Below, one piece after another: positions 4,747-53,709 of a stretch of 64,000 nt of DNA. Made by a program: the position numbers and the translations under genes. The notes below the pieces were generated by a model that was not told the DNA's origin, ran no database searches, and worked only from the letters and a program-made list of their open reading frames with translations. The stretch lies in the IMG/VR virus record IMGVR_UViG_3300021066_000001, one strand, 5' to 3'. Source of the stretch: a virus (taxonomy: Duplodnaviria > Heunggongvirae > Uroviricota > Caudoviricetes). The first letter of the stretch is position 1. Each line of letters begins with the position of its first letter.

Positions 4747-5051
4747 GGCCTCCTGAGGTTAAACATGCGAACGGTGTACCAGATCGCGAGCGGCCAGTAG
4801 ATCCAGCCAAACAGCACGCAAACGAAAAGCTCACCGGGGTGATACTTCTTGTCGACCGTCGCCAGAGCCGCCCAGCTGAGAAGTCCAGCCCCAAAGATGT
4901 AATAGCAGATGGGGGCGAAGTGGTCGTCTGGCGCGGCGATGAACCAGGGATGATGCTTGAAGGTCCCGAGAATCACGGCCGCGACGATGATCGCGACGAC
5001 CACCCCCAAGATCACCATGACCTCAAACTTGTCGCGAGGGCGGGCTTTCAT
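4743..5051 (-). CDS. Small integral membrane protein
   Basis: Start trimmed to the ATG overlapping the permease stop (ATGA); three hydrophobic segments. Confidence 0.45.
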   Translation of the reverse strand: MKARPRDKFEVMVILGVVVAIIVAAVILGTFKHHPWFIAAPDDHFAPICYYIFGAGLLSWAALATVDKKYHPGELFVCVLFGWIYWPLAIWYTVRMFNLRRP

Positions 5052-5827: not shown

Positions 5828-5912
5828 TCGACGCCTCCGTCGTTAGTTTGGGCGAGCACCTTGGGTTCGAACCAAGATCTTACGAGCCAACTCCCTCGTG
5901 CTCGCTTACGTC

Positions 5913-12812: not shown

Positions 12813-14162
12813 TTACTTCGAGTCGAACTCGATGAGGTAGCGCGGCCGCGCTTGCGACAGGCGGTAGACGATCATCTCGTTATTCATCACGCCCGACTTT
12901 TTGGCTTGAGCGTACATCGAGTCGTAGCCGCTGGGCAGCCGGCCAGTCGGGTTGCTGGGCGTGTAGTAGTTGCCCATCGCGACGTCGAAGAGGAACATGA
13001 AGCAGTTGGAGTCGCGGCGGCCGCCGTCCCAGTAGCCGTAGCTGTAGTTGAGGGATTTGGTCGACTGGTCGCTGAAGTAGAGGCCGTCGCCGAACATGCG
13101 GCCGGTGATGTTGATCGAGCCGCCGCTGCGCGGAATGATCAGGCCCGACTTCAGGATCGACAGCACGTTGAAGACGCGCGTGCCGTGCCAGAGGGTCCAG
13201 TTGTTCTTCGCCGCCTGGGCGACCGGGTCATTCTCGAACGCCTTGGAGGCGCCCGGCAGGTCGACCTCGAAGAAGCGCACCGGCTTGAGGTGACGCGACT
13301 CGTGGATGTTGTTCGCGCTCTCGCGGAACATCTTGATGATGCGATCGATCATCTTGCCGTCCGTGAGGACCTTGATCTCGGAGTCGAAGACGTTCGGCAT
13401 GTCGGCGATCGACTTGTCGGCCGCGATCGCGCTCTTCGCCCTAGACTCGGCGAGGTCGGCCGAAGCTTCCATCTGGTCCAGCATCGTGTTCTGGCGCTGG
13501 AGGGCGTTCATGTCGGGGATGAAGGCGCGGTGCCAGCCGCGCGAGTGGCCGACCTTTTGCGGCACCTTGCGGAGATAGGCGCCCAGCTTGTTCATGAAGG
13601 CAGGGTTGTCGAAGTCACCGCGCTGGACGTAGACCGCGAGGTCCTGGAGGATCGTGCGAGCGTCGATGATCGAAACCTTGCCGATCACGCCGACGGCCGA
13701 CGAGATCACGCCCGTCTTCAGGTCGATGTCGATCATGCCACCGGACGAGGCGATCAGCTCATGCTTGTTCGCCTTGACGAGCCGCTCGACGAGGTCATGG
13801 AGAACAGGGTCAGCGGCCTTGACGAGCTGTGACTTGGCCGCCTCGACCAGGACGACCTGGCTCTTGACCGGACCGGTGGGCCCGGTCGGTTGGCGCTCAG
13901 CGATGACGTTGACGATCTCGTAGCCCTTGAGGAGCTTCTCGGCGATCTTGCCGGCGAGGTTGAGTTGCTTCGGGGGCTCGACGTTCAGCGTGTCACGGCC
14001 GACGCGGCCGTACTTGACGATGATGCCGGCGGGGTCCTTGACGAACTCCCAGACCTTGTTATTGTTGTTCTCGGGGTCAGTGCAGACGAACTTTGCGGTG
14101 TCGAGCTGTGCGTATTGTGCGGCGAGCTTTTTTGCGGCTTCTTTATCGAGTTGGACGACCAT
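12813..14162 (-). CDS. PARP-family ADP-ribosyltransferase with N-terminal WGR domain
   Basis: WGR-like KVWEF...KYGRVG; catalytic H-Y-E signature: TLWHGT (His-Gly-Thr), GRMFGDGLYFSDQSTKSLNYSY (Tyr), NEMIVY...YLIEF (Glu). T4-late-like TATAAATAG 53 nt upstream. Confidence 0.7.
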   Translation of the reverse strand: MVVQLDKEAAKKLAAQYAQLDTAKFVCTDPENNNNKVWEFVKDPAGIIVKYGRVGRDTLNVEPPKQLNLAGKIAEKLLKGYEIVNVIAERQPTGPTGPVKSQVVLVEAAKSQLVKAADPVLHDLVERLVKANKHELIASSGGMIDIDLKTGVISSAVGVIGKVSIIDARTILQDLAVYVQRGDFDNPAFMNKLGAYLRKVPQKVGHSRGWHRAFIPDMNALQRQNTMLDQMEASADLAESRAKSAIAADKSIADMPNVFDSEIKVLTDGKMIDRIIKMFRESANNIHESRHLKPVRFFEVDLPGASKAFENDPVAQAAKNNWTLWHGTRVFNVLSILKSGLIIPRSGGSINITGRMFGDGLYFSDQSTKSLNYSYGYWDGGRRDSNCFMFLFDVAMGNYYTPSNPTGRLPSGYDSMYAQAKKSGVMNNEMIVYRLSQARPRYLIEFDSK

Positions 14163-39047: not shown

Positions 39048-39476
39048 TCATGAGTTGTACACGATTCGCAGGTACGGGTCGTTGACTACTCTCTCGCGGT
39101 AGAGGTGCGGGAATTTCTCCTTGAGCTCGTGCACGGTCGCCTTGAGCTTACGCGGGCCGAGAGGTGACGGCGCGTTGAGCATGTACGTGACCGAATGCAC
39201 GTCCTCATCGTTGAAGCTGATCTCCGCAGGCGAGAATAGCTCACGCTCGTCCTCAAACATCGGATGCTTGAGTTGCGGCTGGGGACCGTACTCCACCTCG
39301 CGCAGCTGGTTGAACCACGGGGAGCGATGGAACGTGATCTTGAACGGGCCGTGAGAACCCAGCTCTCTCCAGTAGCTCAAGCTGACGCCCGAGTGAATCT
39401 TGCTCTCGCGAATGCGTCGCTCGTCGAGAACCTTGAGCGGGTTCGAGCAGTTGTAGTAAGCAATGACGAGGATCAC
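39048..39476 (-). CDS. Hypothetical protein
   Basis: ORF track. Confidence 0.5.
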   Translation of the reverse strand: MILVIAYYNCSNPLKVLDERRIRESKIHSGVSLSYWRELGSHGPFKITFHRSPWFNQLREVEYGPQPQLKHPMFEDERELFSPAEISFNDEDVHSVTYMLNAPSPLGPRKLKATVHELKEKFPHLYRERVVNDPYLRIVYNS

Positions 39477-40108
39477 TTCTTGTGCTTGTAGCGGATCTGC
39501 TTCCAGAGCGCGTTCTCGACGACGTGCGGCTCGACCTTGTCGCTCTTGAGGAGCTTGATCGTCATGCCGACGAGCGCGCTCACCGCCTTCGTGTTCCCCA
39601 TGAGCGCAGCCTCGATCATCGCGGTGTTCGTCTCGACCACCTTCTTGATCGTCTCGTGGAAGATCTCGTTCTCGTCCTTGACGACGCCGGTGTGCTCGAT
39701 GACCCTACACTTGGCCATCTCCTCTCTGACCGCCGTGATCGCCTCGCGAAATCTCTCGCGGGTTTGCTTCGTTTGGGCGATGACGCCGGCGGAGAACTCC
39801 TTGTGAAAACGTGGATCTGCTACCAGGCCATCCGGGAGAATGCGGCCAGCGTACGGCCGATCGACGATCGGCTGGTGGCGATCGATCTTCGCTTGCGCGG
39901 CAGCCTCAACAGCAGCGACGAAGACGTCGAACTGCTCGGCGGTGAAGCCACCGTTAGAGAGCACTGCCTTGAGCGCCTTCTCGTTGTTCAGGTCGTCGCC
40001 GATTTCCCACTTTCCGATGATGTTGACGCACCCATCGATCTCCCGTTGGGAGATCGGATCAGAGTTGTCATGATCGAAGTGATAGAGCTTGCTGATGACG
40101 CATCTCAT
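39473..40108 (-). CDS. Hypothetical protein
   Basis: ORF track. Confidence 0.5.
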   Translation of the reverse strand: MRCVISKLYHFDHDNSDPISQREIDGCVNIIGKWEIGDDLNNEKALKAVLSNGGFTAEQFDVFVAAVEAAAQAKIDRHQPIVDRPYAGRILPDGLVADPRFHKEFSAGVIAQTKQTRERFREAITAVREEMAKCRVIEHTGVVKDENEIFHETIKKVVETNTAMIEAALMGNTKAVSALVGMTIKLLKSDKVEPHVVENALWKQIRYKHKK

Positions 40109-40605
40109 CGGGAGCTCCCGGATAGAATTCGCTTTCTAGCCGCGGCCGTCGCGTCATGCGGGAGGGGACCGATCTCGCGGTGAGCGTACTCCGCCCACTG
40201 CTTGGGAGTGCGAATGTAAGAGATGTTGCCGAAGAGCGTCTTCGCGTCGTCATAGCCGATGTCGAAGAACTTCTTCGCCGCCTCGAAGGGGGAGTAGCCT
40301 CGCCCCTTCACCCTGAATTGATAACTTGAGTCCTCCCATCTCATCTCTAGCCCCAGCTCTTGAAACTTTGGCTTCACCGCGGCGAAGCCGAGGGCGCAGG
40401 CCGAGGTGCCGCAATCCATTACGTGCGTTCGAGTAATCCGGGTGCCCTCGCGAGCGATCTCGTGCCAGCCTCGGTGATCCAAGAAGGCTCCCATGTTGAA
40501 GTGCTTGTGTGTCTCGGGAGCTTGTTTTCTCATGTAAGCGATCAGCTCGTGAAGCAGCACCATCGCGCGGAGAGTGAGAAGACGTGGGCCGTAGAGCTTT
40601 TTCAT
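40105..40605 (-). CDS. Hypothetical protein, KHFNM...CGTSACALG family (paralog of 2775..3338)
   Basis: Shared motif block with 2775..3338. Confidence 0.6.
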   Translation of the reverse strand: MKKLYGPRLLTLRAMVLLHELIAYMRKQAPETHKHFNMGAFLDHRGWHEIAREGTRITRTHVMDCGTSACALGFAAVKPKFQELGLEMRWEDSSYQFRVKGRGYSPFEAAKKFFDIGYDDAKTLFGNISYIRTPKQWAEYAHREIGPLPHDATAAARKRILSGSSR

Positions 40606-40619
40606 CGCGTGATCTCCGG

Positions 40620-41153
40620 TCAGAACTTGCAGAGCGAAAAGGTCTTGTACTCACCCGCGTCGAAGAGCTTCTTCGCGCCGTTGAGCTCTAGGAGCTCGAT
40701 GATGAAGGCGCACTCGAGGACGATTCCCCCAGCCTTCTCGATGAGATAAGCCGCCGCGGTCGCGGTGCCTCCGGTCGCCAGGAGGTCGTCGACGAGGAGG
40801 ACATTGTCTCCGCGCCTGATCACGCCAGCCTGAATCTCGACGCAATCGGTGCCGTACTCGAGCGCGTACTCCATTTGAAGCGTGGCGCCCGGAAGCTTGC
40901 CCCTCTTGCGGATCGGCACGAAGGGGAGGTCAAGCGCAAGAGCCAAGGGTACTCCGAAGAGAAAGCCGCGAGACTCGAGCGCGGCGATCGCCGTCGGCGA
41001 CTCGTAGCCGCGGCTCGGTTGGTAGCGGTGAGCGAGTTGGTTGATCACGTCTTGAAAGTCGACCGGCGACGCGAGAAGCGGGCAGATGTCCTTGAACATG
41101 ATGCCCGGTTTCGGAAAGTCGGGGACGTCTCTGATCAGCTTGTTGAGGATCAA
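40620..41153 (-). CDS. apt: Adenine phosphoribosyltransferase
   Basis: FKDICPLL, PRPP-binding VLLVDDLLATGGTA, 177 aa. Confidence 0.8.
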   Translation of the reverse strand: MILNKLIRDVPDFPKPGIMFKDICPLLASPVDFQDVINQLAHRYQPSRGYESPTAIAALESRGFLFGVPLALALDLPFVPIRKRGKLPGATLQMEYALEYGTDCVEIQAGVIRRGDNVLLVDDLLATGGTATAAAYLIEKAGGIVLECAFIIELLELNGAKKLFDAGEYKTFSLCKF

Positions 41154-41491
41154 TGGAGGCTCCTAGCGAAGGTCTTCCCCTTGAGCTCGTCCTTGACGGC
41201 GGGCGACTCGTTGAGGAGGCTGATCAGCGACGCGGCGATCGTGTGGTAGATCTCCTCGCACTGATTCGAGTTTACGTATGGGTAGATCCCGATGTCGGTG
41301 ACGATCAGGTCAGAGTTGGAGGTCCGCCCGCGCATTCTCTCGGGGAGCACATCCTCGGTCTGGATCGTAAACCCGGTGAGCGTCGGGCAGCTCTCAAAGA
41401 TCTGCTTGACTCTCTTCGCGACTTCTGGGGTCATAAAAATGACGCTCCAAGCACCAAGCCGAAGAGCAACCCGATCACGAAGGTGTCCCAC
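41150..41491 (-). CDS. Hypothetical protein
   Basis: ORF track. Confidence 0.45.
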   Translation of the reverse strand: MGHLRDRVALRLGAWSVIFMTPEVAKRVKQIFESCPTLTGFTIQTEDVLPERMRGRTSNSDLIVTDIGIYPYVNSNQCEEIYHTIAASLISLLNESPAVKDELKGKTFARSLH

Positions 41492-41501
41492 TGGATGTAC
41501 A

Positions 41502-41786
41502 TCACATCACCCAGCCGTACGGTGAGTTCTTGTTGAGGAAGACCTTCTTCCCGCGCACCTCGAAGTACTCGCCGCGCTTGCTCGAGAGGAGCGGCGCGCG
41601 CCGGATCATGCCGATCTTGCAGCCGTGCCCCGAGCGAAACGAGTAAGCGACGACGCGCTTGCCGATCTCCATGATGACGAGATCGGCACCGCGGTTGCGC
41701 TGAGTGCCAAAGGCGGTCACGTACTTGACCGGAACGTGAAAGAAGCGTTGGTCCATCGGTTGGCTGGGACGCAGGAGGGTAGTCAC
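41502..41786 (-). CDS. Hypothetical protein
   Basis: ORF track. Confidence 0.45.
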   Translation of the reverse strand: MTTLLRPSQPMDQRFFHVPVKYVTAFGTQRNRGADLVIMEIGKRVVAYSFRSGHGCKIGMIRRAPLLSSKRGEYFEVRGKKVFLNKNSPYGWVM

Positions 41787-42025
41787 TGGATGCGCTCCAC
41801 GTGGGTGACAGGGGACTCTTCCGAGTCGTCGGGAGAGCGGAGAGCGAGGCGATCGCCGACGTTAAGCTCGGTGACCTGATCGAGCTCATCGGCCGTGAGG
41901 TTGATGTCGCTCACGAGCTCAAGCAGACGGAGCGGCTTCGAGCACGCCATCGTCTGCTTGAGCTCGTTGATCCACCCGTACGGGCCGCCGACGACCAGGT
42001 ACTCCTTCGGCTGCTTGCCGCTCAT
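41783..42025 (-). CDS. Hypothetical protein
   Basis: ORF track. Confidence 0.45.
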   Translation of the reverse strand: MSGKQPKEYLVVGGPYGWINELKQTMACSKPLRLLELVSDINLTADELDQVTELNVGDRLALRSPDDSEESPVTHVERIQ

Positions 42026-42648
42026 CGCTTCACCCTCGCTAGAAAATCATCGATCGTCGATTCGACGGCCCGATAGAGCTTCTTGTCGCCCCTCGTCAGG
42101 CCGGGCAGCGCGTCACGCTTCTCGCAGAAGTACTTGACCGCGAAGCCGCCGACCGCCTTGAGCGACATCCCCGACAGGTTGTGGAGGATGTCAGCCAGCT
42201 TGATCGTTTGCACCTTCGGCAGACGATCGCGCTTGTGCTCCCGGGCGAGGCGCTTCGCGCGGTTGAGGTCCGGGTACTTCGCCTTGGTGAACTCGTCGGT
42301 GCACTGGTCGACGTACTTGCCGACCACCTGGCCGAACTTGGCGGTGACGTCGGCGAGGGTCGTCTTCGTGTCCTCGACGGTGTCGTGGAGGAGAGCGGCG
42401 ATGATCTGGTCCTCGTCTCCGCCCGCGAGCCGAACCAGCTCGGCGACGATGACGACGTGCTCGACGTAGAGGACGGACTCGCCGGCCTGAGCCGAGTACT
42501 TGCGAATCTGGCGACCGAGAAGGTCGCGCTCGACCGTCTCCTTGGCGTGGTTGTTGTGCCGGTCTTCGGCGTAAAGAACGCCCGTCATGACGCGCGCGCT
42601 GAGAGCTTCGAGATTCTGGCGGGCTTCGGCGTAGGACGGGATGTGCAT
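42022..42648 (-). CDS. HD-domain (p)ppGpp hydrolase, small alarmone hydrolase (SpoT/Mesh1-like)
   Basis: AALLHDTVEDT matches the Rel/SpoT hydrolase HD motif; 208 aa single domain. Confidence 0.65.
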   Translation of the reverse strand: MHIPSYAEARQNLEALSARVMTGVLYAEDRHNNHAKETVERDLLGRQIRKYSAQAGESVLYVEHVVIVAELVRLAGGDEDQIIAALLHDTVEDTKTTLADVTAKFGQVVGKYVDQCTDEFTKAKYPDLNRAKRLAREHKRDRLPKVQTIKLADILHNLSGMSLKAVGGFAVKYFCEKRDALPGLTRGDKKLYRAVESTIDDFLARVKR

Positions 42649-42653
42649 AGTGA

Positions 42654-42683
42654 ATTATACTCAATTTGACGCCAAAAGTAAAC
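42654..42683 (-). promoter_or_regulatory. T4-early-like promoter TCTGGTTTAC-N18-TATAAT, 5 nt from the ATG
   Basis: minus GTTTAC 42683..42678, TATAAT 42659..42654; near-identical copy at 42924..42953. Confidence 0.5.
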
Positions 42684-42719
42684 CAGACTTCACACTAATC
42701 GCGTGAAATCTAGAATTTG

Positions 42720-42917
42720 TTAGCGAGCTTTGTCGAGGACGCGCCAGACGACCGCGCGAATTGTGCCGTGTCCAGAGCCGTCGGGAGTGGACCAACCGCG
42801 GCGGAGCTTAGTCATGACGCCAAAGTCACGCCCGTTCGCCATGATGCGTTTCTGGGTAGGGCTCAGGGTGATGACGTGAGCCGTCCCAGCGTCGGTGACA
42901 ATTTTGCGGGTGTTCAT
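42720..42917 (-). CDS. Hypothetical small protein
   Basis: ORF track. Confidence 0.45.
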   Translation of the reverse strand: MNTRKIVTDAGTAHVITLSPTQKRIMANGRDFGVMTKLRRGWSTPDGSGHGTIRAVVWRVLDKAR

Positions 42918-42923
42918 AGAGAG

Positions 42924-42953
42924 ATTATAAACTCAAAATGAGCAAAAGTAAAC
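42924..42953 (-). promoter_or_regulatory. T4-early-like promoter TCTGGTTTAC-N18-TATAAT, 6 nt from the ATG
   Basis: minus GTTTAC 42953..42948, TATAAT 42929..42924; shares ~40 nt of similarity with 42654..42700. Confidence 0.5.
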
Positions 42954-43005
42954 CAGATCACCTCAAAAAGACGATGATCTGGCTTATTTTACCGCAATTA
43001 CTAGT

Positions 43006-44502
43006 TTAAGCCATTGCTCTCGCGCGAACGTCGTCGAGCTTCTCGTCGATGAGCAGCACGCCGTTCTCGTAGATCGTGACCATCTGGTCCTGGTACTCGG
43101 CGTCGATCTTCGAGTCCATGTCGAGCGTCACGTACTCGCCGGTGAGAGCGCTCCGGTACAGCGAGAGGCGCCCGCCCTGCGACTTCTTGCCAGCGTCGGT
43201 GATCGGGTTCTTCGCGATCGGCTCCCAGCGGTTTCCGCGGCGAATCGCCGACGCCTTCTGCGCGAAAGAGTAGGTGTCACGGTTGACCTTCTGGAGGAGC
43301 GCGCCGCCAGAGCCGAACACGATGTTGCAGGCCGCGAAGCCCATCTCGGTGACCTGGTCGAGCACCGCGTTCATCAGGTCGAAGTCGACCCCGTCGCCCC
43401 AAATGACTCCGACGTTGTTGATCACGAGAAAGCCTTTCGAGTTCTTCGTGGTGCCGAACGCCGCGGCGAGCTTGCGGAGAATCGCCGGGAGGAGCTCGAG
43501 AGGGTCGCCCGAGTCTGGGCGGAGAACCACCTTGGCGCCAGAAGCGACGATCATGTCCCTCAGTGAGCAAACGACATCGGTCTCACGGAGGGTGTCGTAA
43601 CCGTCGATGACGATCGACACGATGCCGCCCGGCTTGGCCTGAGTCTTGATCACCGTCTCCAGGTACTCGCGCTGACCCATCGCGCCATACGCGGTCTGCA
43701 CGCTGTGCTCGGTGGCAAAAACGCTGTAGGCCGCCATGTCACAGTTGTAGTAGAAGTTCGCCGCGCGTACGCCGTCGATCGTGTCCGATCCGCCGAAATA
43801 GATCAGGTGGGACATGCCGCCGTTTTCGGCTTGCTCTCCGCAAGTGACCCCGCGGCCGCCGAAATCGTGGAGAGCGATCGCGGTCCAGGGCACCGGCGCC
43901 GGATCGTTCGACATCGCGTCATACAGACGCAGCGCACGCCAATTCTTGTAGTCGTTCGACGCGATCGTCGTCATATACCAGACGACGCGCTGAACCGCGG
44001 TCTCGATGTACGACGCGAGCCAGAACAGGTCGGGATCGGTGCACTCGATCGTCCAGAGAGCGTTGCCGCTCGGGACTCGCGTGCCTTCGCGAACGCCGCG
44101 GATCTTCAACGGCAGAAAGCCGTTGTACTTCTTGACGACCTTTTCCCAGCCAGCACGGTTGAAGGTGACGGCGCCTTCACCAGCGATCAAGTGCTTCTTG
44201 GCAAAGGCCTCGGCCTCGTCGATCATCTCCATGGTGATCTGCTTAGAGAGCAGCACCTTTTTGATGAACATCTGCATGCCGACGGGGACGATCGTTTCGC
44301 CCTTTTTACGGGCCGCGAGATAGGAGAACATTCCGTTCGTCGCGGCCGGGTAGATCGCCCAGTGGCCGAGCTTGTAGCTATCCGCTTCGAGCGGAATGTT
44401 GCGGGGCATCAGCGGCTGGCCGCCGCTCCACGCGGTGATGGTCTTCTGGTCAGGTGTGTCTCCGGGTTCCCGGAGGGGTGCAAGTTCAACTGCATTTTTC
44501 AT
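43006..44502 (-). CDS. nadV: Nicotinamide phosphoribosyltransferase (NAMPT/NadV)
   Basis: 498 aa; N-terminal ...LEADSYKLGHW and overall NAMPT-like length and blocks. Confidence 0.8.
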   Translation of the reverse strand: MKNAVELAPLREPGDTPDQKTITAWSGGQPLMPRNIPLEADSYKLGHWAIYPAATNGMFSYLAARKKGETIVPVGMQMFIKKVLLSKQITMEMIDEAEAFAKKHLIAGEGAVTFNRAGWEKVVKKYNGFLPLKIRGVREGTRVPSGNALWTIECTDPDLFWLASYIETAVQRVVWYMTTIASNDYKNWRALRLYDAMSNDPAPVPWTAIALHDFGGRGVTCGEQAENGGMSHLIYFGGSDTIDGVRAANFYYNCDMAAYSVFATEHSVQTAYGAMGQREYLETVIKTQAKPGGIVSIVIDGYDTLRETDVVCSLRDMIVASGAKVVLRPDSGDPLELLPAILRKLAAAFGTTKNSKGFLVINNVGVIWGDGVDFDLMNAVLDQVTEMGFAACNIVFGSGGALLQKVNRDTYSFAQKASAIRRGNRWEPIAKNPITDAGKKSQGGRLSLYRSALTGEYVTLDMDSKIDAEYQDQMVTIYENGVLLIDEKLDDVRARAMA

Positions 44503-44561
44503 CGTAAGCTCCTTACGGTTAAATTACAGGCTTGCGTCTTTCGCTCACCTGGTGCTGCAAT

Positions 44562-45731
44562 TCACTTGATCTTTCCGCCCACGTTCGCTCGCTCGAGGCG
44601 GTCGGCGAAGTCCGAGATGATGTCCCAGTGGTCATCGAAGAGCTGGTCCGACATGTTGATCGCTTCGCCGACCGGAAACCACTTCGCCTTGACGGCGTCA
44701 TCGGAGCCCTTCACCTTGGGCAACTTGATCTTGCCGTCGACGACGATGTCAGCCAGCTCGAAGCAGTAGGCCATCGAGACGACGCGGCCGCGGCCGGGCG
44801 AGCGATCCGGGTGCTCGAAGAAGTGGTTGAACTTCAGCGAGTTGCGGAGGGCGAGCTCGGGGACGTCGAGCTTAGTCTCTTCGTAGAGCTCACGAACGGC
44901 GGTGTCGAAGGTCCACTCGAACTCGTCGACGTGGCCGCCCGGGAGCGCCCAGAGGCCCTTGCCGGGTGCAGCGCGGCGTTGGACGAGGAGGATGTGGCCG
45001 GTCTGAAAGACGACGGCGTCGGCCGCGAACTCGATGATCGGGTACTTGCGCACCGTTGAGAGGGCCTTCTTCGCCTCGTTCTTCTTGCGCTCTACCTCGA
45101 ACTCCTCGAGGAGGAGTGAGTAGGCCGGCGTCTCCTTGAAGCGCTCGAGGAAAGCGCGTGACTCGTGAGGGATGAACGCGCGGAGCAGCATCTCGCGGTT
45201 GCCGTCGGTGATCTGGTTGCCCTCGAACTCGTTGCGGAAGAAGAGGTTGCGGAGGGCGGTCGCGGAGAGAACCTTGCTGACGTTGCGGTTCTCCTCAACG
45301 AAGTCCCGCTTCCAGTTGGCCTGGGCGAGGAGCATCTGCAGGTAGAACGTACTAGCGTCGCGCTCGGAACCGGTGAGGTAAACCTCCCTGGCATCGGGCG
45401 CCGCGCGTCTGACCTCGGCCTGGACCTCGGCGAGCCACTTGGTATTGTTATACCTGTAGTCGCGGGCGAAGACGACCTCGAGGTCCGCTAGATCCGACCC
45501 TGGGCGAGGGGCGTTAGCGTTGAACCAATTCTCGTACCAGTTCATGATCACAGCGGCACGTTCGCCGCCGGTGAAGGGATTCTTGGTGGTGCGAGGCTGC
45601 CAGGTCGAGCCGATGACGACGATGACCTTGTTGCTGAGGTTGAGCGCTCGCTCGAGAAGCTCAGCGTGCCCGACGTGGAACAACGAAAACCTACCGATGA
45701 GGACCGTGAGGTCCCGTTTGCTACCTGTCAC
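44562..45731 (-). CDS. natV: Bifunctional NMN adenylyltransferase (NadM-type) / Nudix hydrolase
   Basis: HxGH nucleotidyltransferase motif (GRFSLFHVGH), Nudix box GGHVDEFEWTFDTAVRELYEETKL; GTG start with AAGGAG SD. Confidence 0.8.
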   Translation of the reverse strand: MTGSKRDLTVLIGRFSLFHVGHAELLERALNLSNKVIVVIGSTWQPRTTKNPFTGGERAAVIMNWYENWFNANAPRPGSDLADLEVVFARDYRYNNTKWLAEVQAEVRRAAPDAREVYLTGSERDASTFYLQMLLAQANWKRDFVEENRNVSKVLSATALRNLFFRNEFEGNQITDGNREMLLRAFIPHESRAFLERFKETPAYSLLLEEFEVERKKNEAKKALSTVRKYPIIEFAADAVVFQTGHILLVQRRAAPGKGLWALPGGHVDEFEWTFDTAVRELYEETKLDVPELALRNSLKFNHFFEHPDRSPGRGRVVSMAYCFELADIVVDGKIKLPKVKGSDDAVKAKWFPVGEAINMSDQLFDDHWDIISDFADRLERANVGGKIK

Positions 45732-45825
45732 GAAGAAGCTCCTTCTATCGTGGTTGAGCGCGACCCGTCTATCGGGTCACGATGCTATTTAAGGACATCC
45801 TAACACAGTCATGCTAGGATGTAAA

Positions 45826-46161
45826 CTATTTCAGTCCCATGCACCGGTTGATCTGGACACGAAGGCGGCTCATGTAGTCCTCAAGCTGGTCACGCGAGAC
45901 GCTGATGTCCTGGTTGAGACGATAACTAAAGTAGTACCTGACCCCAGGCCCGTATGCTCCTCGCAATCCGCTAGCTTGCCAAACGATCTGGTCGCCGAAG
46001 ACGACGTGGGTGACGGCGCTCAGGTTGACGAGCACGCCGTGGCCTGCCTCGTACATGCAAACTCCAGCTGATCTAGGGCGATCATGGTCATTCTCAGACC
46101 CCGACCCTGCAAGAGCCGACATGCATGTGAGCGAGAGAGCGAGAGCAAGGATGATCTTCAT
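45826..46161 (-). CDS. Small secreted protein
   Basis: Signal peptide MKIILALALSLTCMSALA. Confidence 0.5.
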   Translation of the reverse strand: MKIILALALSLTCMSALAGSGSENDHDRPRSAGVCMYEAGHGVLVNLSAVTHVVFGDQIVWQASGLRGAYGPGVRYYFSYRLNQDISVSRDQLEDYMSRLRVQINRCMGLK

Positions 46162-46604
46162 AGGCCAGATTGATAGATGAGCTTGATCTTGAGGAACTTT
46201 TCGATCTCTTCCCAGTTTTCAGCCTGGGTGCAGGGTTCAGCGATCAGCTGCTTGAAGTTTCTAAGCGCATCGTCGTCCGTCCAGCGATTCTTGATGAACG
46301 TCTTGTCGGCCAGGTCATAGATGATCGACGCCGAGTACTTCCCCTTCAGCGGGATCCTCCACGCGAAGTCATTCCCGGGACTCACCCTCCGTCCAACCTC
46401 GATGATAAAGTTTTCGTTCTTGCCTGACCTCGTGAACGCCGGACCGAATGACAAAAACATGAAATGGTGATCCGGGCGCATCTCTCTGATGTGGGGCCAA
46501 TCGAAGTCGTCAGGCGGAGTGGGAGCTACGATGTGTCCAGCTCGCTTGAACACCTCATAGAGCTCATCGCTCAAAGCTCGATCACCTGCCCCTTCTGCGC
46601 CCAA
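46158..46604 (-). CDS. Hypothetical protein
   Basis: ORF track. Confidence 0.45.
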   Translation of the reverse strand: MGAEGAGDRALSDELYEVFKRAGHIVAPTPPDDFDWPHIREMRPDHHFMFLSFGPAFTRSGKNENFIIEVGRRVSPGNDFAWRIPLKGKYSASIIYDLADKTFIKNRWTDDDALRNFKQLIAEPCTQAENWEEIEKFLKIKLIYQSGL

Positions 46605-47461
46605 CCCTTGAAGCCGTCAGCAACGGCGTCGGCCTTCGGTCCAAACTGATAGTGGTAGAGCCACATCTTCGCCTTCGTCTCGGCGGGAAGCGTCTTGAGC
46701 TGGTCGTAGTGCGCGTGAACCCGTGACTTGAAGGGAGTCGTCTCGCAGTCGTGGAGAATCAGATCGGCCGCGTTGTAAAAGTCGACGATCTGCTCGGGAT
46801 TGAACTGGGTGTCCGACGTCCAGAAGACGTTCTTGCCGTTCGCCTTGAACTCGAGCCCGAACGACGGCATGATGCGATTGTCCGACATGATGTGAACGAC
46901 CTGGATCAGCTTCATGTTCAGGCCGCACCAGCTGAACTGTCCCTTCTTGCCGACGCGCTGCAAATTGAAGTAGGTGTCGAGGTCAGCCGCCTCTCCCTGC
47001 TTGGAGTCCATGCCGCCGGACAGCGACTTGCTCCAGAGCTCGTACGCGAGGGAGCGATCGATGATCAGGTTGGGCTTCGGCTTTCCGGCAAAGTGGGTCA
47101 TGAAGCCGATGTACTCCATGCCGCCGACGTGATCGGCGTGCGGGTGGCTGATGTAGACGTCGTTGATGTCCCACGCCGTTAGGCCTTGCTCGCCGAGCGA
47201 GAAACGGACGTCGCCTCCGGCGTCCCAGAGCATGCGCCGCGTGCCGAGGGTCGGGTGCGTGGCGGTCAAGACGAGGTTGCTCTGCCAGTTGCTGGTGCGG
47301 CCGGCCTTGAGAGCCTCGATGTCGGTGTAGAACGCCGCGCCAGTGCCGAGAAACTGGATCTGGTACTTGTAGCCGAGATTGAGATCCTTGAGATCTCCGA
47401 TCTTGAAGCTGATCGTCTTGTCGAGATCGATCGTTTGGTCGAGCTTTTCGGTGCTTTCCAT
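46571..47461 (-). CDS. Metallo-beta-lactamase-fold hydrolase (RNase Z/ElaC-like; candidate Apyc1-type cyclic-nucleotide phosphodiesterase)
   Basis: FLGTGAA, HPHADHVGG (HxHxDH), downstream His/Asp ligands. Confidence 0.6.
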   Translation of the reverse strand: MESTEKLDQTIDLDKTISFKIGDLKDLNLGYKYQIQFLGTGAAFYTDIEALKAGRTSNWQSNLVLTATHPTLGTRRMLWDAGGDVRFSLGEQGLTAWDINDVYISHPHADHVGGMEYIGFMTHFAGKPKPNLIIDRSLAYELWSKSLSGGMDSKQGEAADLDTYFNLQRVGKKGQFSWCGLNMKLIQVVHIMSDNRIMPSFGLEFKANGKNVFWTSDTQFNPEQIVDFYNAADLILHDCETTPFKSRVHAHYDQLKTLPAETKAKMWLYHYQFGPKADAVADGFKGWAQKGQVIEL

Positions 47462-47678
47462 CGTCTCTTCTCCGTGGAGGTTATTTCAAACTACCTGTTG
47501 CTCCATCGGCGGAGCCTTGCTCCGTCAACTTGTCTGTATCCTATCACGTTTTCGCGAGAGGTACAAACAACTTCGTCACTTTGATCCAAAAATTTCGATG
47601 ATTACTCCACAGATGAGAAAGATGATGATGAGAAGGACGATGGGGTGCTCGTGTGCTCGTGCGCCCAGTTCCAGAATG

Positions 47679-47891
47679 TCATGGACAACTCACTATGTTT
47701 AAGAGGGTAAAGATCTTCTGCATCCAGACGCCGCAGAAGTAGCTACACACGCACGCGCCCCAGCACATCTTCTCGCGCGCAGACTCAGAGAAGATCGGCC
47801 AAGATAGAGACCCCACCGCAAGACCTACTACCGCGATGAGCGAGAGGCCCAACAAGGCCCCGTAGAGAACCGCGACGTAAACGTTGCTCAC
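47679..47891 (-). CDS. Small membrane protein (70 aa, GTG start)
   Basis: Trimmed from ORF 47679..48185 to the GTG overlapping the upstream stop (GTGA); hydrophobic YVAVLYGALLGLSLIAVVGLAV. Confidence 0.35.
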   Translation of the reverse strand: MSNVYVAVLYGALLGLSLIAVVGLAVGSLSWPIFSESAREKMCWGACVCSYFCGVWMQKIFTLLNIVSCP

Positions 47892-48841
47892 TTGTACTCC
47901 CAGTCCGAGCGACGCTCGACGATCGTCAAGCACTTGGCCGATCCACCGGCCTTCAGGTACTCCGACAGGTCGGTCTCGAGGGGGATGAAATTTTCGTCGT
48001 CGAGAAATCTCTGAAGCCGGCCGCTCAGCTTGTGAGCGATCACGCACTCCTGGATCCCGACCGCGTTTGCCGAGAAGTCGATCGCCTCGCTCTCGTCGAG
48101 AAACGTCCACGCCGTGCCGAGGTCGTTGAACATGTCCTCTAGACGAAGTCGTGAGGCGCGGTCGAAGGCCTCCGGATAGAACCACCCGACCGACGCGTCA
48201 CCCTGTCCGTGCCAGAAGAAGCACGTGTCTAGGTGATAGAAGCGAGGATCAACGAGACGTACCGGGATGATCTGCTGCGCGTCATCCTCCGTGTAATAGG
48301 CGCAGAGCTGCTTGACGAACTCCTCGGAGGTACGATGACCGTAGCCGACGACTAGATAGTCACCTGCGCGCAGGAGGTCTCCGTCACCCTCAAACGAGGG
48401 GAGAACCTTGCCAGGATGGAGCTCTCTGATGATCTCGTGGCGGTGCCACGAGAAGTGATCCTCAAAAAAGTTTTGCTCGATCACTCTCTCCTGCTTGGCG
48501 AACCTTGAGGGGAGGAAGATGTAGTCACCTGACCCGTCGCTCTTGGGGAGAAACGAGCCGGCGTTCGCGATGAAGACGGCGTCTGGCGCGTTGTCGAGGT
48601 GAAAGGGAATGACGCTCGGATCGGCCTGGTGCACGTACGCGCCCGCGTGCTCGAGGTGATAGACGAGGTTCAACCACTGCTTCTTGGCGAGGCTCAGGTC
48701 GACGGTGCCGATCTTGTCGATCATCCATGGGTTGATCTCATAGTCGACGCCGTAGACGCTCGGCCTCGAGACGTGGAGAGTAGCTGGCTTGAGTTGCTCC
48801 TCAAGCAGGAGCTCCTTGAGCGGTCGTTGTTCTGTCGTCAT
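47888..48841 (-). CDS. Amidinotransferase-superfamily enzyme (ADI/DDAH/agmatine-deiminase-like guanidino-group-modifying fold)
   Basis: C-terminal GGSAKCLT matches the catalytic-Cys motif (GGG..HCMT) of this superfamily; 317 aa. Confidence 0.45.
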   Translation of the reverse strand: MTTEQRPLKELLLEEQLKPATLHVSRPSVYGVDYEINPWMIDKIGTVDLSLAKKQWLNLVYHLEHAGAYVHQADPSVIPFHLDNAPDAVFIANAGSFLPKSDGSGDYIFLPSRFAKQERVIEQNFFEDHFSWHRHEIIRELHPGKVLPSFEGDGDLLRAGDYLVVGYGHRTSEEFVKQLCAYYTEDDAQQIIPVRLVDPRFYHLDTCFFWHGQGDASVGWFYPEAFDRASRLRLEDMFNDLGTAWTFLDESEAIDFSANAVGIQECVIAHKLSGRLQRFLDDENFIPLETDLSEYLKAGGSAKCLTIVERRSDWEYK

Positions 48842-48867
48842 CCCATCTCTCCCAGTTCGCGCGGTAT

Positions 48868-49341
48868 TTACGGAACCGGGATGACAGAGATGGAGTGCTT
48901 GGCTGAGCCAGAGATGAGCCTGGTCGAGTACGAGACGTAGACGAGAACGCGCCGCTCCTTGTCGTAGAAACGCTTCACCTTGAGGTGCTTGAAGATGGGT
49001 GAGCGACTCTCTCGAAAGACCTCCTCACCCTGCTCGATCGCGATCCTGAGGATCAGCGAGGGGCCGATCTGGCGACACGCGATCGAGGCGTCGGAGGTCT
49101 CTTCGGCGAAGGGGTTGAGCGTGCCCCTGACCGTGTAGCTGATGTAGCAGTAAGCTCCCTCGACCTTTGGATCGGCGAAGGCGTCGATCGCGATCTTGCT
49201 GTTGGGGCCCATGAAGTTGATCTCGGTCGTCACCTCACCGATCCGATCGCGAGCGTGTGCGCTGGTCATGAAGCCGCAGATCGCCATGAGGAGAACGAAG
49301 ATCGCGAAGACCGCGCCGTGCAGATCCATCTTTTTGGTCAT
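48868..49341 (-). CDS. Secreted or lipoprotein-like protein
   Basis: Signal peptide with a Cys in the hydrophobic core region (VFAIFVLLMAICGF). Confidence 0.45.
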   Translation of the reverse strand: MTKKMDLHGAVFAIFVLLMAICGFMTSAHARDRIGEVTTEINFMGPNSKIAIDAFADPKVEGAYCYISYTVRGTLNPFAEETSDASIACRQIGPSLILRIAIEQGEEVFRESRSPIFKHLKVKRFYDKERRVLVYVSYSTRLISGSAKHSISVIPVP

Positions 49342-49350
49342 GTGCTTATC

Positions 49351-49605
49351 CTATAATCTTACGTTGAGCCAAGAGATGTGAAGATTAGTACCGCTGAGGA
49401 GGACTTCGTACCCCATCTCCTGAAGCTTCGTCATCACGATCGAGACGTCCGTACCGGCGTTGAGAGCCGATGTCGCGACGGTATACTTGAAGAGGCCGTT
49501 CTTCGCGCGCCTAGCGATCTCCTCGGAGATCACGTACACGGTTTGAACGCTAGTGTTAGTTTTTGCTCGCTCAGCGAGCACCTTAGCTTCTCTGGCGTTG
49601 ATCAC
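49351..49605 (-). CDS. Hypothetical protein (84 aa, GTG start)
   Basis: Trimmed to the GTG overlapping the upstream stop (GTGA). Confidence 0.4.
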   Translation of the reverse strand: MINAREAKVLAERAKTNTSVQTVYVISEEIARRAKNGLFKYTVATSALNAGTDVSIVMTKLQEMGYEVLLSGTNLHISWLNVRL

Positions 49606-49859: not shown

Positions 49860-50549
49860 TTATTTGATGAACTTCTTAGGGTCTGGTTGTTGCTCCGCGA
49901 TTCGCTGAATCTCGCCGTTCTCATGCTTCCACCGCACGTTTAGCACGGGCATCTGGTGCTGCTGGATGCGATTGAAAGCTTCTACGGCGATCTCGAGGAT
50001 CTTTTGCGGAGAAACGAAGGCGCCAGACCCGTCATGGACGTCGAGGAGAACCTTGTGGGTGATGAGTGAGCGATCGAAGGCCCGGTAAAAGTCGTTCTGC
50101 TCCTCCTCCCTCTGAGTGACGTCAAACGACTTGCCGTCATCGGAGATGAAGTTCCAGTCGGAGGTGTGGAGAAGAATGAGGAGCGTTCGCTCATCGAACT
50201 TGGAACCGATGCTCTTGAAGTGGCGCTCGAGCTCGAAGACGTACGTTCCGTCGTACTTGCGGTACCTCGGGGCGTACACAAACTCTCCCAGGTGAGCTCG
50301 ATCTAGGATCAGCTTCGCCTCTGAGGAGAGCATCCTGAGCATGGTGGTGAAGGACTCGAGCTGGTATTGCTTCAAGGCCTCACGGCTTCGCTCTTGCTGG
50401 TGGAGAATCGGCCCTGTCAGGTAGCGATCGAGGAGCTTGGGCTTCTCGTAGTGAATGACTTGAAAGTAACCGAGCCGCTGGAGAAGACCCTCGATCAGCG
50501 TGCCCTTGCCGAGACGATCGCAGCCCTCGATGATGATCGACGAGAACAT
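49860..50549 (-). CDS. Thymidylate-kinase-like P-loop (d)NMP kinase
   Basis: IIIEGCDRLGKGT (like IEGxDGAGKTT); start trimmed to an internal ATG. Confidence 0.5.
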   Translation of the reverse strand: MFSSIIIEGCDRLGKGTLIEGLLQRLGYFQVIHYEKPKLLDRYLTGPILHQQERSREALKQYQLESFTTMLRMLSSEAKLILDRAHLGEFVYAPRYRKYDGTYVFELERHFKSIGSKFDERTLLILLHTSDWNFISDDGKSFDVTQREEEQNDFYRAFDRSLITHKVLLDVHDGSGAFVSPQKILEIAVEAFNRIQQHQMPVLNVRWKHENGEIQRIAEQQPDPKKFIK

Positions 50550-50749
50550 CAGAACGCGATGAGACCGGTGATGACCGAGAAGATCGCAGCGGCGAAGCAA
50601 CCGAGGCCGATGAGGGTAGGAAATACTCCGGCCAAGCCGTCGGCGAATGTGCCAGAGCCCCCGCTAGCGTTCGCTCCCCAGAACATGAACGTTCCTCCGA
50701 GAGCGCACAAGAAGATCGGCACGTACCACCAGTGAAGAATGATCGTCAT
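50549..50749 (-). CDS. Small membrane protein
   Basis: Two TM helices. Confidence 0.45.
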   Translation of the reverse strand: MTIILHWWYVPIFLCALGGTFMFWGANASGGSGTFADGLAGVFPTLIGLGCFAAAIFSVITGLIAF

Positions 50750-50755
50750 GTCCCT

Positions 50756-51127
50756 TTACTTGGCGAGCTTGAGATTGGCGCCGCCGGGCATCTGGCTTGG
50801 GCTAGCGAGAGCGATGCTCGTCGTCTGTTGCATGTAGATCTTCTCGAGCTCGGGATCTGGCGCGTAGACCGCGATCGCGATGTCCTTCAGGTCGACACTG
50901 AGCTTGACGTCCTGGTTGCCCAGAGTCCAGGGCATGATCGCGAGACCCTTCCCGAGCGGGTGGAAGCCGACGACCCGGGTGTCGGTGAGAACGACCGCGA
51001 GGCTCTTGAGAGGTTGACCTTCCTGAAGCAGATCGTCGAGGTTGATGCCGACGGACGAGAGGGGCGACTCGGTGGCCTTAGCGATGATGTCCTCGCCGGT
51101 GGTGAGCTTGATGCAGATGATCTTCAT
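50756..51127 (-). CDS. Hypothetical protein
   Basis: ORF track. Confidence 0.5.
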   Translation of the reverse strand: MKIICIKLTTGEDIIAKATESPLSSVGINLDDLLQEGQPLKSLAVVLTDTRVVGFHPLGKGLAIMPWTLGNQDVKLSVDLKDIAIAVYAPDPELEKIYMQQTTSIALASPSQMPGGANLKLAK

Positions 51128-51801
51128 GTGATCTCCAGGTATTTGAAGTGTCTTGAGTAGACGTGTAACGAGCCGGCGTTCCAGAAGATGGGTCCCTCCT
51201 GGAGGTTCGGGTAGGTGTAGCGAAGGTCACCGAGAAGCTGGTCCCTGACGTGCTTCTGCCAGTGAAAGTCGTTGTTGTAGCCAAACACCGCGTCGTTCGA
51301 CCGCATGTCGACCTTAGTGACGAGGGCTTCCTCGCGGATGAAGTATTGCACAGTGTTGGTGCAGATGAAGTCTTGCATCCCGTCACGGTTGAAATCGACG
51401 TGCATCGATGGCCGAGTGTAGATCATGACCGCGCGGCGTGACGTCGAGTCCCGGTCAAGCTCGGTCAGAACGTTCTGGTATTGCATTCCGTTCTGAAACC
51501 CGTAGATGCACCAGCCGTAGTTGGAGTTGATCTCGCGCTTAGAGCTAGCTACCTGAGACCAGATCTGCGGCGGGCCGCCCGGGATGTCGTCGACGTTGAG
51601 AGACATGCTCTCGTACCACTGGAGCTCGCGCTTCGCCCACTCCTCGTTGAGGGAGCCGAAGATTGTCGGCTCGTCAGCCAGAAAGCACGCGTTGATGATC
51701 TCAACGGTCTGCGCGCCCGTCTTGTTGTTGCCGATCGTCATGAACTTTTGATTTCGGTAGAGCTCGATGAGCTGAGCTCGGATGTCGCGCACTAGCATCA
51801 A
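51124..51801 (-). CDS. Deoxycytidylate 5-hydroxymethyltransferase (T4 gp42 homolog)
   Basis: Matches T4 gp42 blocks: KTG.QTVEII.A.F.ADEP.IFG.LN, SKREINSNYGW, SRRAVMIYTRPSM, FICTNTVQY, MRSNDAVFG, WNAGSLHVYSRHF. Confidence 0.85.
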   Translation of the reverse strand: MMLVRDIRAQLIELYRNQKFMTIGNNKTGAQTVEIINACFLADEPTIFGSLNEEWAKRELQWYESMSLNVDDIPGGPPQIWSQVASSKREINSNYGWCIYGFQNGMQYQNVLTELDRDSTSRRAVMIYTRPSMHVDFNRDGMQDFICTNTVQYFIREEALVTKVDMRSNDAVFGYNNDFHWQKHVRDQLLGDLRYTYPNLQEGPIFWNAGSLHVYSRHFKYLEIT

Positions 51802-52112
51802 GCTCGCTTCCCTCCGCCTGAGCGGTGGGGCTTGACCGGACGACCCTTGTCGATCTCGACTCCGAGTTGCTCCACGAACTTTTTCACGTCACTCGGAGCT
51901 ACATCTACCTCAATGAGAGCAACGCTTCTTCCCTTGCGACGTACTCTCTCGCGAGCTCCCTGGTGGGGAAAGTAACCGCGCTTGTCTCCTCGGGCGCGAG
52001 CCTCAAGCAAGAGCTTGCGACTGGTTGTGTGAAGCACGGGAGTAAAGTCGATCTTTGTGGGATCGACAGGAATTCCTGCGATGTTTATCGGCTTAGTGTC
52101 TTCGGAGTTCAT
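51798..52112 (-). CDS. Hypothetical protein (weak SUI1/YciH-like resemblance)
   Basis: RRKGRSVALIEVDVAPSDVKKFVEQL vs SUI1 GRKGKGVCLITGLDLDDAELTKLAAEL; weak. Confidence 0.35.
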   Translation of the reverse strand: MNSEDTKPINIAGIPVDPTKIDFTPVLHTTSRKLLLEARARGDKRGYFPHQGARERVRRKGRSVALIEVDVAPSDVKKFVEQLGVEIDKGRPVKPHRSGGGKRA

Positions 52113-52115
52113 TTG

Positions 52116-53204: not shown

Positions 53205-53563
53205 GCCAGCAACTTCCAGAACTCTCGGTCGACGATCTCCGACATGCCAGCCTCTAGCAAACGCGACTGCGTCGTGAGCTTCACGGAGATCTCATTCATC
53301 TTCTTCACTGACTCGCTCTCTACCTCACTAACTCGTCTCGCGTAGATGGGATAGGATGGGAAGAAGAAGTCGCCTAACGCTTGCTCTAGCGCTGCTGGAA
53401 GAGCATCCGCCATCGCTCGCTCGTCGTAGAGCCGGCCGCCGGCGTTTGTCTTCGTGACTTGGAGCTCGTCCAACATGAACAAGTCAGCCGTGCGTCCTCT
53501 GATCTCAGCAGCCATCCGCGTCTCTCGCTTCCTCACGCAACCACCCCTCTTGCCAGAGCTCAC
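53201..53563 (-). CDS. Hypothetical protein
   Basis: ORF track; start uncertain. Confidence 0.4.
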   Translation of the reverse strand: MSSGKRGGCVRKRETRMAAEIRGRTADLFMLDELQVTKTNAGGRLYDERAMADALPAALEQALGDFFFPSYPIYARRVSEVESESVKKMNEISVKLTTQSRLLEAGMSEIVDREFWKLLA

Positions 53564-53709
53564 GGCGATGATCCACGTACGGACATTGCTCGTACATCGC
53601 GCCCTCCCAGTACGCGTCGGCGCCCTCGCTCACCACGAGCTCGTCGACGTGACGCTGGCGATACGCGTCGAGCGGATCGAACCCGTCGATGAGCGGGAGC
53701 GAGCTTACG

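Follow-up and report, generated by a model that had tools for sequence, protein, structure and literature searches.

A putative NARP2-type NAD+ resynthesis gene pair in the genome of an apparent uncultured jumbo phage

The 64,000-nucleotide stretch of DNA of the IMG/VR virus record IMGVR_UViG_3300021066_000001, referred to here at its full length as the window, contains two adjacent genes that encode a nicotinamide phosphoribosyltransferase (Nampt) and a bifunctional protein with an NMN adenylyltransferase (NMNAT; NMN, nicotinamide mononucleotide) domain of the NadM family and a Nudix domain. The explanation that we favour, with a probability of about 0.72, is that these genes constitute a NARP2-type unit for the resynthesis of nicotinamide adenine dinucleotide (NAD+) of an uncultured jumbo phage, and that this unit serves against NAD+-cleaving defences. 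The presence of such an adjacent pair at positions 43006-45731 had been proposed in the first-pass annotation of this DNA, and the two open reading frames (ORFs) lie exactly there, both on the minus strand, with the NadM-Nudix gene upstream and a gap of 59 bp (44503-44561) between them. The source contig, when its genes were called independently, yields the same two products:

43006..44502, minus strand: nadV-like gene for nicotinamide phosphoribosyltransferase (Nampt), 498 aa, ATG start
44562..45731, minus strand: natV-like gene for NadM-family NMN adenylyltransferase with Nudix ADP-ribose pyrophosphatase, 389 aa, GTG start

Identity of the transferase

The product of the nadV-like gene scores 487.8 bits (E 3e-146) with the NCBIfam equivalog model NF006629, the cut-off of which is 405. 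It comprises the Pfam domains NAMPT_N and NAPRTase, and its match in PHROG is family 448, "nicotinamide phosphoribosyl transferase" (E 6e-130). Its matches in the Protein Data Bank (PDB) include the Xanthomonas-type Nampt 7yqo (347 bits, E 1e-102) and human and mouse NAMPT (268 bits). Particular residues were compared in an alignment with human NAMPT, NadV of the reference phage KVP40, three NARP1 transferases (Namats), three cultured-phage homologues, and six metagenomic homologues. In this alignment, Y43, F214, R217, D240, H266, R328, and D330 of the window protein correspond to Y18, F193, R196, D219, H247, R311, and D313 of human NAMPT, while G369, D370, G399, G400, R408, K416, K431, and K439 correspond to human G353, D354, G383, G384, R392, K400, K415, and K423. 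The human sequence used for the numbering agrees with the PDB alignments over residues 10-480. Every listed catalytic residue of human NAMPT is kept in the window protein, and the loss of such residues, which according to the first-pass annotation would refute its reading, is not seen.

The transferase of the NARP1 pathway, Namat, is homologous to Nampt and shares with it the catalytic core, including the phospho-histidine. It differs in using ADPR-pyrophosphate (ADPR, ADP-ribose), which is provided by the Prs-like enzyme Adps, and the pathway likewise ends with NAD+ and targets NAD+-depleting defences. The Namat/Nampt superfamily is matched in 2019 phage records. NARP1 operons annotated as "nicotinamide phosphoribosyltransferase" make up many of these, and a Namat mis-annotated as Nampt would fit this pattern. 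In the case of the window protein such a mis-annotation is effectively refuted by several features. An adenine "selectivity clamp" has been described for the SpbetaL1 Namat (PDB 9W5W/9W5X), and the aromatic residues of its helix, F392 and Y396, were replaced in that study by G and K, which are found in Nampt (PMC12774641). The corresponding positions are occupied by the non-aromatic A401 and K405 in the window protein, by G/A and K in Nampts, and by Y/F and Y/F/C in the three NARP1 Namats used as references, which come from operons with a Prs-like Adps gene beside the transferase gene in Escherichia coli phage I14.1, Staphylococcus phage SA3, and Pseudomonas phage PAK_P1. The columns of G355 and G384 contain Gly in the window protein and in Nampts and Ser in Namats, and the insertion that follows RPDSGDP in Namats is absent from the window protein, which scores just 180 bits with 9W5W as compared to 347 bits with 7yqo. 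In a neighbour-joining tree of 15 sequences, the Namats (n=3) split from the rest in 200 of 200 bootstrap replicates, and the window protein falls within a clade of metagenomic sequences (support 100%) that lies on the side of human NAMPT and KVP40 NadV. Additionally, the partner gene encodes an NMNAT, and a tblastn search with three Adps proteins gave nothing at E<0.5 in the 64-kb window of the ~396-kb genome and nothing in 96 related loci. Results of our analysis indicate that the transferase is a true Nampt, as named in the first-pass annotation, and not a Namat. As a worked procedure, Nampt and Namat can be distinguished when phages are annotated by the residues at the clamp, the presence of the insertion, and the nature of the partner gene.

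Identity of the partner enzyme

The product of the natV-like gene is composed of a NadM part (about aa 7-225) and a Nudix part (about aa 226-380), which match Pfam families PF01467 (CTP_transf_like) and PF00293 (NUDIX), respectively. It matches seven NCBIfam models of bifunctional NMNAT/Nudix proteins end to end (E down to 1e-74) and the solved structures 2qjo of Synechocystis (166 bits, aligned residues 7-378) and 2qjt of Francisella (137 bits). Both NMNAT motifs are present, namely GRFSLFHVGH at 13-22, with H19-G21-H22 representing HxGH, and SATALR of the ISSTxxR type at 156-161. The Nudix box, expected as GX5EX7REUXEEXGU, is found at 265-288 (GHVDEFEWTFDTAVRELYEETKL) with G266, E272, R280-E281, and E284-E285 in place and with the last Gly replaced by Lys; a PDRS motif downstream of this box is also present. 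The HxGH, SATALR, Nudix box, and PDRS motifs all fall into invariant columns of a seven-sequence alignment. The partner had been described earlier as a bifunctional NadM-Nudix NMNAT, and the intact motifs bear this description out. Genes similar to natV occur in 478 of 50,697 phage records (0.9%), which is consistent with the published frequency of NARP2, about 1.1% of phages (10.1101/2024.02.11.579819).

Conservation of the gene order

The synteny of the pair was analysed in 96 related loci, drawn from IMG/VR, from JGI/ENA metagenomes, and from cultured phages. Where the NAMPT was at least 40% identical to that of the window and the upstream flank extended over 5.5 kb or more, the NadM-Nudix gene was found upstream of the NAMPT gene on the same strand in 30 of the 31 loci. 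The gap between the two genes in these loci has a median of ~1.1 kb and is no longer than 300 bp in 10 of them, and phages LucasX and Bajun have the same adjacent order, NadM-Nudix and then NAMPT. The E-values, together with the conserved synteny, exclude a chance similarity. In the genome of KVP40, natV (94.5 kb) and nadV (138.2 kb) are ~43 kb apart, and therefore the adjacency of NatV followed by Nampt is a trait of this clade, in which it is usual, and not of the reference phage.

The nearest relatives of the window NAMPT, 59-64% identical to it, are all metagenomic. A megablast search with the 2.7-kb region of the pair against the 50,697 phage records gave no nucleotide-level match, and because of that the comparison was carried out at the protein level only. 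The GC content of the region equals that of the remaining window.

Relation to known NAD+ restoration systems

The KVP40 pair was shown to abolish type I Thoeris and DSR2 defence and to raise the level of NAD+ even when no defence is present (10.1101/2024.02.11.579819). The aRES defence, in which a phosphate remains on ADPR, is likewise overcome by NARP2 but not by NARP1 (10.64898/2026.01.28.702374). One criterion for NARP2 is an Nmnat homologue encoded by the same phage, as holds for 94% of phages with a KVP40-type Nampt. The window and KVP40 have in common both protein families, the domain architecture in full-length alignments, the catalytic motifs, and the phage origin of the genes, and no Adps partner was found in the 64-kb window. 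The shared families and motifs imply the same predicted chemistry, in which nicotinamide and phosphoribosyl pyrophosphate (PRPP) would be converted to NMN and further to NAD+, with the additional hydrolysis of ADPR. The first-pass annotation spoke of the same pair in KVP40. This holds for the two full-length families, at identities of 34% (NadV) and 32% (NatV, full length, E 8e-54) in the protein comparison that it had proposed, and does not hold for the arrangement, as the KVP40 genes are far apart and those of the window adjacent with NatV first. Further differences are the 31-aa N-terminal extension of the window Nampt, the length of its NatV-like protein, which is greater by ~48 aa owing to three short insertions, and the presence of NadR and PnuC in KVP40, homologues of which were not found in the 64-kb window. 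A second, short ORF of the PF04095 family (KVP40.0259, L013:9159-10052, 297 aa) lies ~3 kb upstream of KVP40 nadV and shows a weak similarity (E 3e-5) to the Nampt of the window.

The closest cultured homologues of the pair are encoded by jumbo or large phages, including Xanthomonas phages LucasX, XacN1, and Xoo-sp13, Ralstonia phage RsoM2USA, Brevundimonas phage Bajun, and phiCbK-like phages of Caulobacter. Their NAMPT proteins are 36-45% and their NatV proteins 33-40% identical to those of the window, the order and strand of the genes are identical, and the genes are adjacent in LucasX and Bajun. RsoM2USA additionally shares ThyA-like, Tmk-like, and arginine-dihydrolase-like neighbours with the window, while Apyc1 and APRT neighbours are specific to the window genome. 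The best matches among solved structures represent the bacterial NadV-NadM salvage (Nampt of Xanthomonas campestris, 7YQO; Synechocystis slr0787, 2QJO; Francisella, 2QJT), which has the same folds and motifs. It differs in that it is a cellular housekeeping pathway, whereas the window genes are viral and their selective context is infection. In the case of NARP3, a two-gene route of NAD+ restoration in phages that comprises a PnuC-like transporter and a NadR-like enzyme (PMC13464706), the final step is also the adenylylation of NMN, but the pathway starts from imported nicotinamide riboside and involves unrelated proteins.

Phage origin of the window

The Nampt sequence is carried by a metagenome contig of 395,674 bp in ENA (ERZ27257322:k141_1025171), of which the window is a part. 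The identical protein is encoded by five contigs, three of them longer than 200 kb, with the longest given as 395,730 bp in a separate listing. The best cultured relatives of four window proteins, namely topoisomerase, Nampt, the NatV-like protein, and a PARP-like protein, are encoded by jumbo phages of Xanthomonas, Ralstonia, and Stenotrophomonas, at 37-48% identity. We conclude that the source is probably a jumbo phage not yet in culture and a distant relative of the XacN1/RsoM2USA group.

It is very improbable that the pair is instead an ordinary NadV/NadM salvage operon of a bacterial chromosome or plasmid. Both enzymes are canonical in bacterial salvage, the best PDB match of the transferase is a bacterial Nampt, and neither virion or other structural phage genes nor tRNA genes were found inside the 64-kb window. 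The coding in the window, however, is nearly all on the minus strand, with many short ORFs that belong to no family, and among its recognisable genes there are those of T4-type split topoisomerase II, RNA ligase of the T4 Rnl1 type with the T4 C-terminal domain, and dNMP kinase. The affinity of the four proteins to jumbo phages, the presence of relatives among the viral contigs of IMG/VR, and the occurrence of the same protein on the long contigs (one of them of 395,674 bp) also argue against a cellular operon.

Expression signals and proposed mode of action

The sequence AAGGAGCTT is present 6-7 nt ahead of the start codon of each of the two genes. The signals identified in and around the pair are as follows:

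45739..45744, minus strand: Shine-Dalgarno sequence AAGGAG of the NadM-Nudix gene, 7 nt before GTG, read in the sequence
44509..44514, minus strand: Shine-Dalgarno sequence AAGGAG of the NAMPT gene, 6 nt before ATG, in the 59-bp gap, read in the sequence; supports the start of the 498-aa product
45797..45825, minus strand: candidate sigma-70-like promoter, composed of TTTACA-17 nt-TAGGAT plus TG, within the 94-bp gap that precedes the NadM-Nudix gene; function predicted
45795-45825, minus strand: 8-bp inverted repeat ACATCCTA-12 nt-TAGGATGT, overlapping the promoter candidate upstream of the NadM-Nudix gene
42924-42952 and 42654-42682, minus strand: two sigma-70-like sites of the same near-consensus sequence, TTTACT-17-TATAAT, located between the pair and the HD-domain gene downstream of it
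42683..42713, minus strand: terminator-like hairpin, the first downstream of the pair, with a 13-pair stem followed by TTTACTTTTG, located after a 65-aa ORF (42720-42917)

The 31-aa N-terminal extension of Nampt is common to its homologue P0034. An alternative start at M32 was considered, as most homologues have 460-470 aa, and was rejected in view of the strong AAGGAG 6 nt before the upstream ATG and of the extension shared with P0034. In a consensus scan, promoter-like sites are enriched in the region 40000-49500 (9 vs. 1.8 +/- 1.5 in shuffled sequences), while terminator-like sites are not (8 vs. 6.9). Since the latter are not more numerous than in shuffled sequences, the hairpin at 42683..42713 can be regarded as a possible, weak indication of the 3' end of the transcription unit. 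For the small flanking ORFs at 42720-42917, 45826-46056, and 46158-46460, no homologues were recovered from the 96 related loci, and these ORFs are therefore placed outside the module.

From the features described above we infer the activities of both enzymes, the timing of their expression, and counter-defence as the function for which the pair would have been selected. The unit is probably transcribed by the host RNA polymerase from the sigma-70-like promoter just upstream of it. Nampt would join nicotinamide to PRPP to form NMN by means of the conserved phospho-histidine H266, and the NadM domain would adenylylate NMN with ATP to NAD+. The Nudix domain is predicted to split ADP-ribose into AMP and ribose-5-phosphate, the latter of which the host PRPP synthetase could return to PRPP. 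In this way, the unit may keep the level of NAD+ in the infected cell high and thereby permit phage replication while effectors of the TIR, SIR2, SEFIR, or RES type cleave NAD+ to nicotinamide and ADP-ribose or ADPR-1''-phosphate.

Counter-defence and NAD+ supply

Several observations weigh against the counter-defence function of the pair. The identity of its products to the tested KVP40 enzymes is just 32-34%, and because of this the role in counter-defence is one that we infer from the experiments on KVP40. The NadM-Nudix protein scores under the NCBIfam equivalog cut-offs (best 251 vs. 354) and is therefore a divergent member of its family. The search for partner genes covered 64 kb of the ~396-kb genome, and Adps or another route to NAD+ may be encoded elsewhere in it. 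The genes that surround the pair are mostly those of cofactor and nucleotide metabolism. Moreover, NARP2 produces NAD+ with or without an active defence (10.1101/2024.02.11.579819), and the phage encodes its own putative NAD+ consumer:

12813..14162, minus strand: PARP-like ADP-ribosyltransferase, 449 aa, 29 kb from the NAD pair (Pfam PARP, 90.7 bits)

The PARP-like protein aligns to the helical and catalytic domains of PARP1, and its H-Y-E triad is intact, with His in WHGT, Tyr in GLYF, and Glu in NNEMIVY, owing to which it is likely to be an NAD+ consumer. PARP homologues are rare in phages (16 of the 50,697 records), and four of the phages that encode them, all of them XacN1-like jumbo phages (XacN1, Xoo-sp13, CM1, and RAS14), also carry NAMPT and NatV.

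Possibly, the pair represents auxiliary metabolism that raises or maintains NAD+ for the needs of the phage itself, mainly those of the PARP-like enzyme, which would consume NAD+ and set nicotinamide free, with the Nudix domain clearing ADP-ribose and with protection from defences as a side benefit. We consider this explanation rather unlikely. It is consistent with the intact triad of the PARP-like protein, with the co-occurrence of PARP, NAMPT, and NatV in the four phages, and with the richness of the window in supply genes, such as those of CoaE-PPAT fusion, DFP/CoaB, ThyA, dNMP kinase, and adenine phosphoribosyltransferase (APRT). In the two closest relatives in terms of context, L007 and L039, the NAD pair is located beside CoaE-PPAT, ThyA-like, Tmk-like, and GT2/TPR genes, and in L007 also beside PanD, with no anti-defence genes there. 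The overproduction of NAD+ by NARP2 even without a defence (10.1101/2024.02.11.579819) and the description of NAD+ metabolism as a typical feature of jumbo phages (PMC7139368) point in the same direction. However, the four phages with PARP and the NAD pair form one lineage and not an independent association, no NAD gene lies within 20 kb to either side of PARP in Klebsiella phage FBKp34, and the PARP gene is 29 kb from the pair in the window and never near it in the relatives. The experimental demonstration available for the family concerns counter-defence, and a homologue of the anti-Pycsar protein Apyc1 is encoded 840 bp upstream of the NadM-Nudix start. The metabolic and the counter-defence explanations are not mutually exclusive; as NARP2 is active regardless of defence, counter-defence cannot be separated from a general NAD+ supply by the analysis of sequences.

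In a wider interpretation, which seems quite doubtful, the pair would not be a NARP2 unit on its own but the hub of a phage "NAD+/adenylate economy", in which the PARP-like protein would spend NAD+, Nampt and NMNAT would rebuild it, the Nudix domain would recycle ADP-ribose, and the neighbouring genes would extend the repair to other metabolites and signals hit by host immunity. APRT would then re-make AMP from free adenine, e.g., after the action of ATP-nucleosidase effectors, the HD-domain protein similar to Mesh1 would act on alarmones or on NADPH, a reported substrate of human MESH1, and the Apyc1 homologue would degrade cyclic-nucleotide signals.

The pair adds one divergent example from an uncultured jumbo phage to a pathway that has already been described and tested, and it would not surprise a specialist. 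More useful leads are found in its surroundings, and include the presence in one phage of a putative NAD+ consumer of the PARP type together with a unit for rebuilding NAD+, a bona fide APRT, and the genes of the coenzyme A (CoA) pathway.

Neighbourhood of the pair

The APRT, the proposed ppGpp hydrolase, which is an HD-domain protein of the RelA/SpoT-hydrolase type, and the metallo-beta-lactamase (MBL) hydrolase, all three named in the first-pass annotation as neighbours of the pair, were recovered with Pfam and NCBIfam models:

46571..47461, minus strand: homologue of Apyc1-family MBL phosphodiesterases, 296 aa, 840 bp upstream of the NadM-Nudix start
42022..42648, minus strand: HD-domain protein similar to Mesh1 and small alarmone hydrolases (SAHs), 208 aa, 357 bp downstream of NAMPT
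40620..41153, minus strand: APRT, 177 aa

The MBL hydrolase scores 70.4 bits with Pfam PF23023 (cut-off 50), and its sole significant PDB matches are the Apyc1 structures 7u2s, 7u2r, and 7t28 (E ~1e-19), in the alignments with which its HPHADH faces HIHADH, so that HxHxDH is kept. These similarities indicate that it is a genuine member of the Apyc1 (anti-Pycsar) family. An N-terminal extension of ~73 aa, which is missing from the solved Apyc1 proteins, was also observed.

The HD-domain protein scores 48.6 with Pfam HD_4 (cut-off 27.2) and matches TIGR00691 in the hydrolase region only, with no synthetase domain. Its best PDB matches are human MESH1 (3nr1/5vxa) and bacterial SAHs, and it contains LLHDTVEDT. 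We assign it, on these similarities, as a hydrolase-only RelA/SpoT homologue of the Mesh1/SAH type. Two unrelated metagenomic loci (L058 and L075) also encode a homologue of this protein, at a distance of ~1-1.6 kb downstream of Nampt. A "GTP pyrophosphokinase" of phage Bajun (L003:2061-2645), encoded 3.4 kb upstream of Nampt, is weakly similar to it (E 6e-5), and the ORF downstream of NAMPT in LucasX was rejected as an HD homologue. Phage SAHs have so far been discussed speculatively (PMC12846349).

The APRT passes three NCBIfam equivalog cut-offs (NF002636, 207 vs. 125; NF002634, 203 vs. 170; TIGR01090, 198 vs. 186). It is nearly absent from phages, being matched in 16 records, mostly in fragments of at most 21 kb. 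Its best matches among 185,579 species genomes show 47-58% identity and are scattered over many phyla, and therefore they give no clue to the host and no sign of a recent capture. To our knowledge, APRT has no anti-defence role, and no literature linking a phage APRT with ATP nucleosidase was found in our search.

The broader anti-defence island that had been suggested in the first-pass annotation is thus confirmed in part. The similarity of the MBL hydrolase to Apyc1 and of the HD-domain protein to Mesh1/SAH is in line with it, but none of the 96 related loci encodes a homologue of Apyc1, APRT, or PARP within 10 kb of NAMPT, and APRT does not belong to the known anti-defence proteins. Metabolic and anti-defence genes are mixed in this neighbourhood, for which the description as a variable region of early genes is more fitting than that as a conserved island, and which can equally be read as a block of cofactor and nucleotide metabolism.

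A GatB/YqeY-domain protein is encoded at 39473-40108 (minus strand), two genes from APRT; a YqeY-like protein of Klebsiella phage FBKp34 (L187:21779-22186) is encoded two genes after the PARP gene of that phage. The product of 47888-48841 (minus strand) resembles arginine dihydrolases and DDAH proteins, which have a guanidino-modifying fold, at scores well under the family cut-offs, and its homologue of 36% identity is encoded 4.9 kb from Nampt in Ralstonia phage RsoM2USA.

Other genes of the window

In addition to the phage-type genes mentioned above, the metabolic genes of the window include two thymidylate-synthase-like genes and those of the CoaE-PPAT fusion, the DFP/CoaB-like protein, and a MazG-like protein, while the remaining recognisable genes encode an ABC transporter, Hsp20, an M3 peptidase, and a collagen-repeat protein. 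The CoA-pathway genes are located at 21762-22811 (minus strand; dephospho-CoA kinase fused to a PPAT-like cytidylyltransferase) and 1687-2952 (minus strand; DFP/CoaB-like protein). The same CoaE-PPAT fusion, followed by aspartate decarboxylase PanD, adjoins the Nampt gene in the relative L007 (L007:10264-11782).

The region 49860-55813 (minus strand) encodes a Tmk-like kinase (49860-50600), a divergent second thymidylate-synthase-like protein (51124-51801), a GT2/TPR glycosyltransferase (52116-53204), and a methyltransferase/GT/TPR protein (54095-55813). This set, which is partly syntenic in L007, L039, and RsoM2USA, is possibly a candidate cluster for the hypermodification of DNA bases.

Genes of an ABC transporter ATPase and a permease-like protein, followed by that of a 594-aa protein with a C-terminal OmpA domain, occupy 3608-7697 (minus strand) and are an unusual phage cargo. 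The 716-aa protein with collagen triple-helix repeats is encoded on the opposite, plus strand (55882-58032), and its gene accounts for the bin of 68% GC and positive AT-skew at 56-58 kb.

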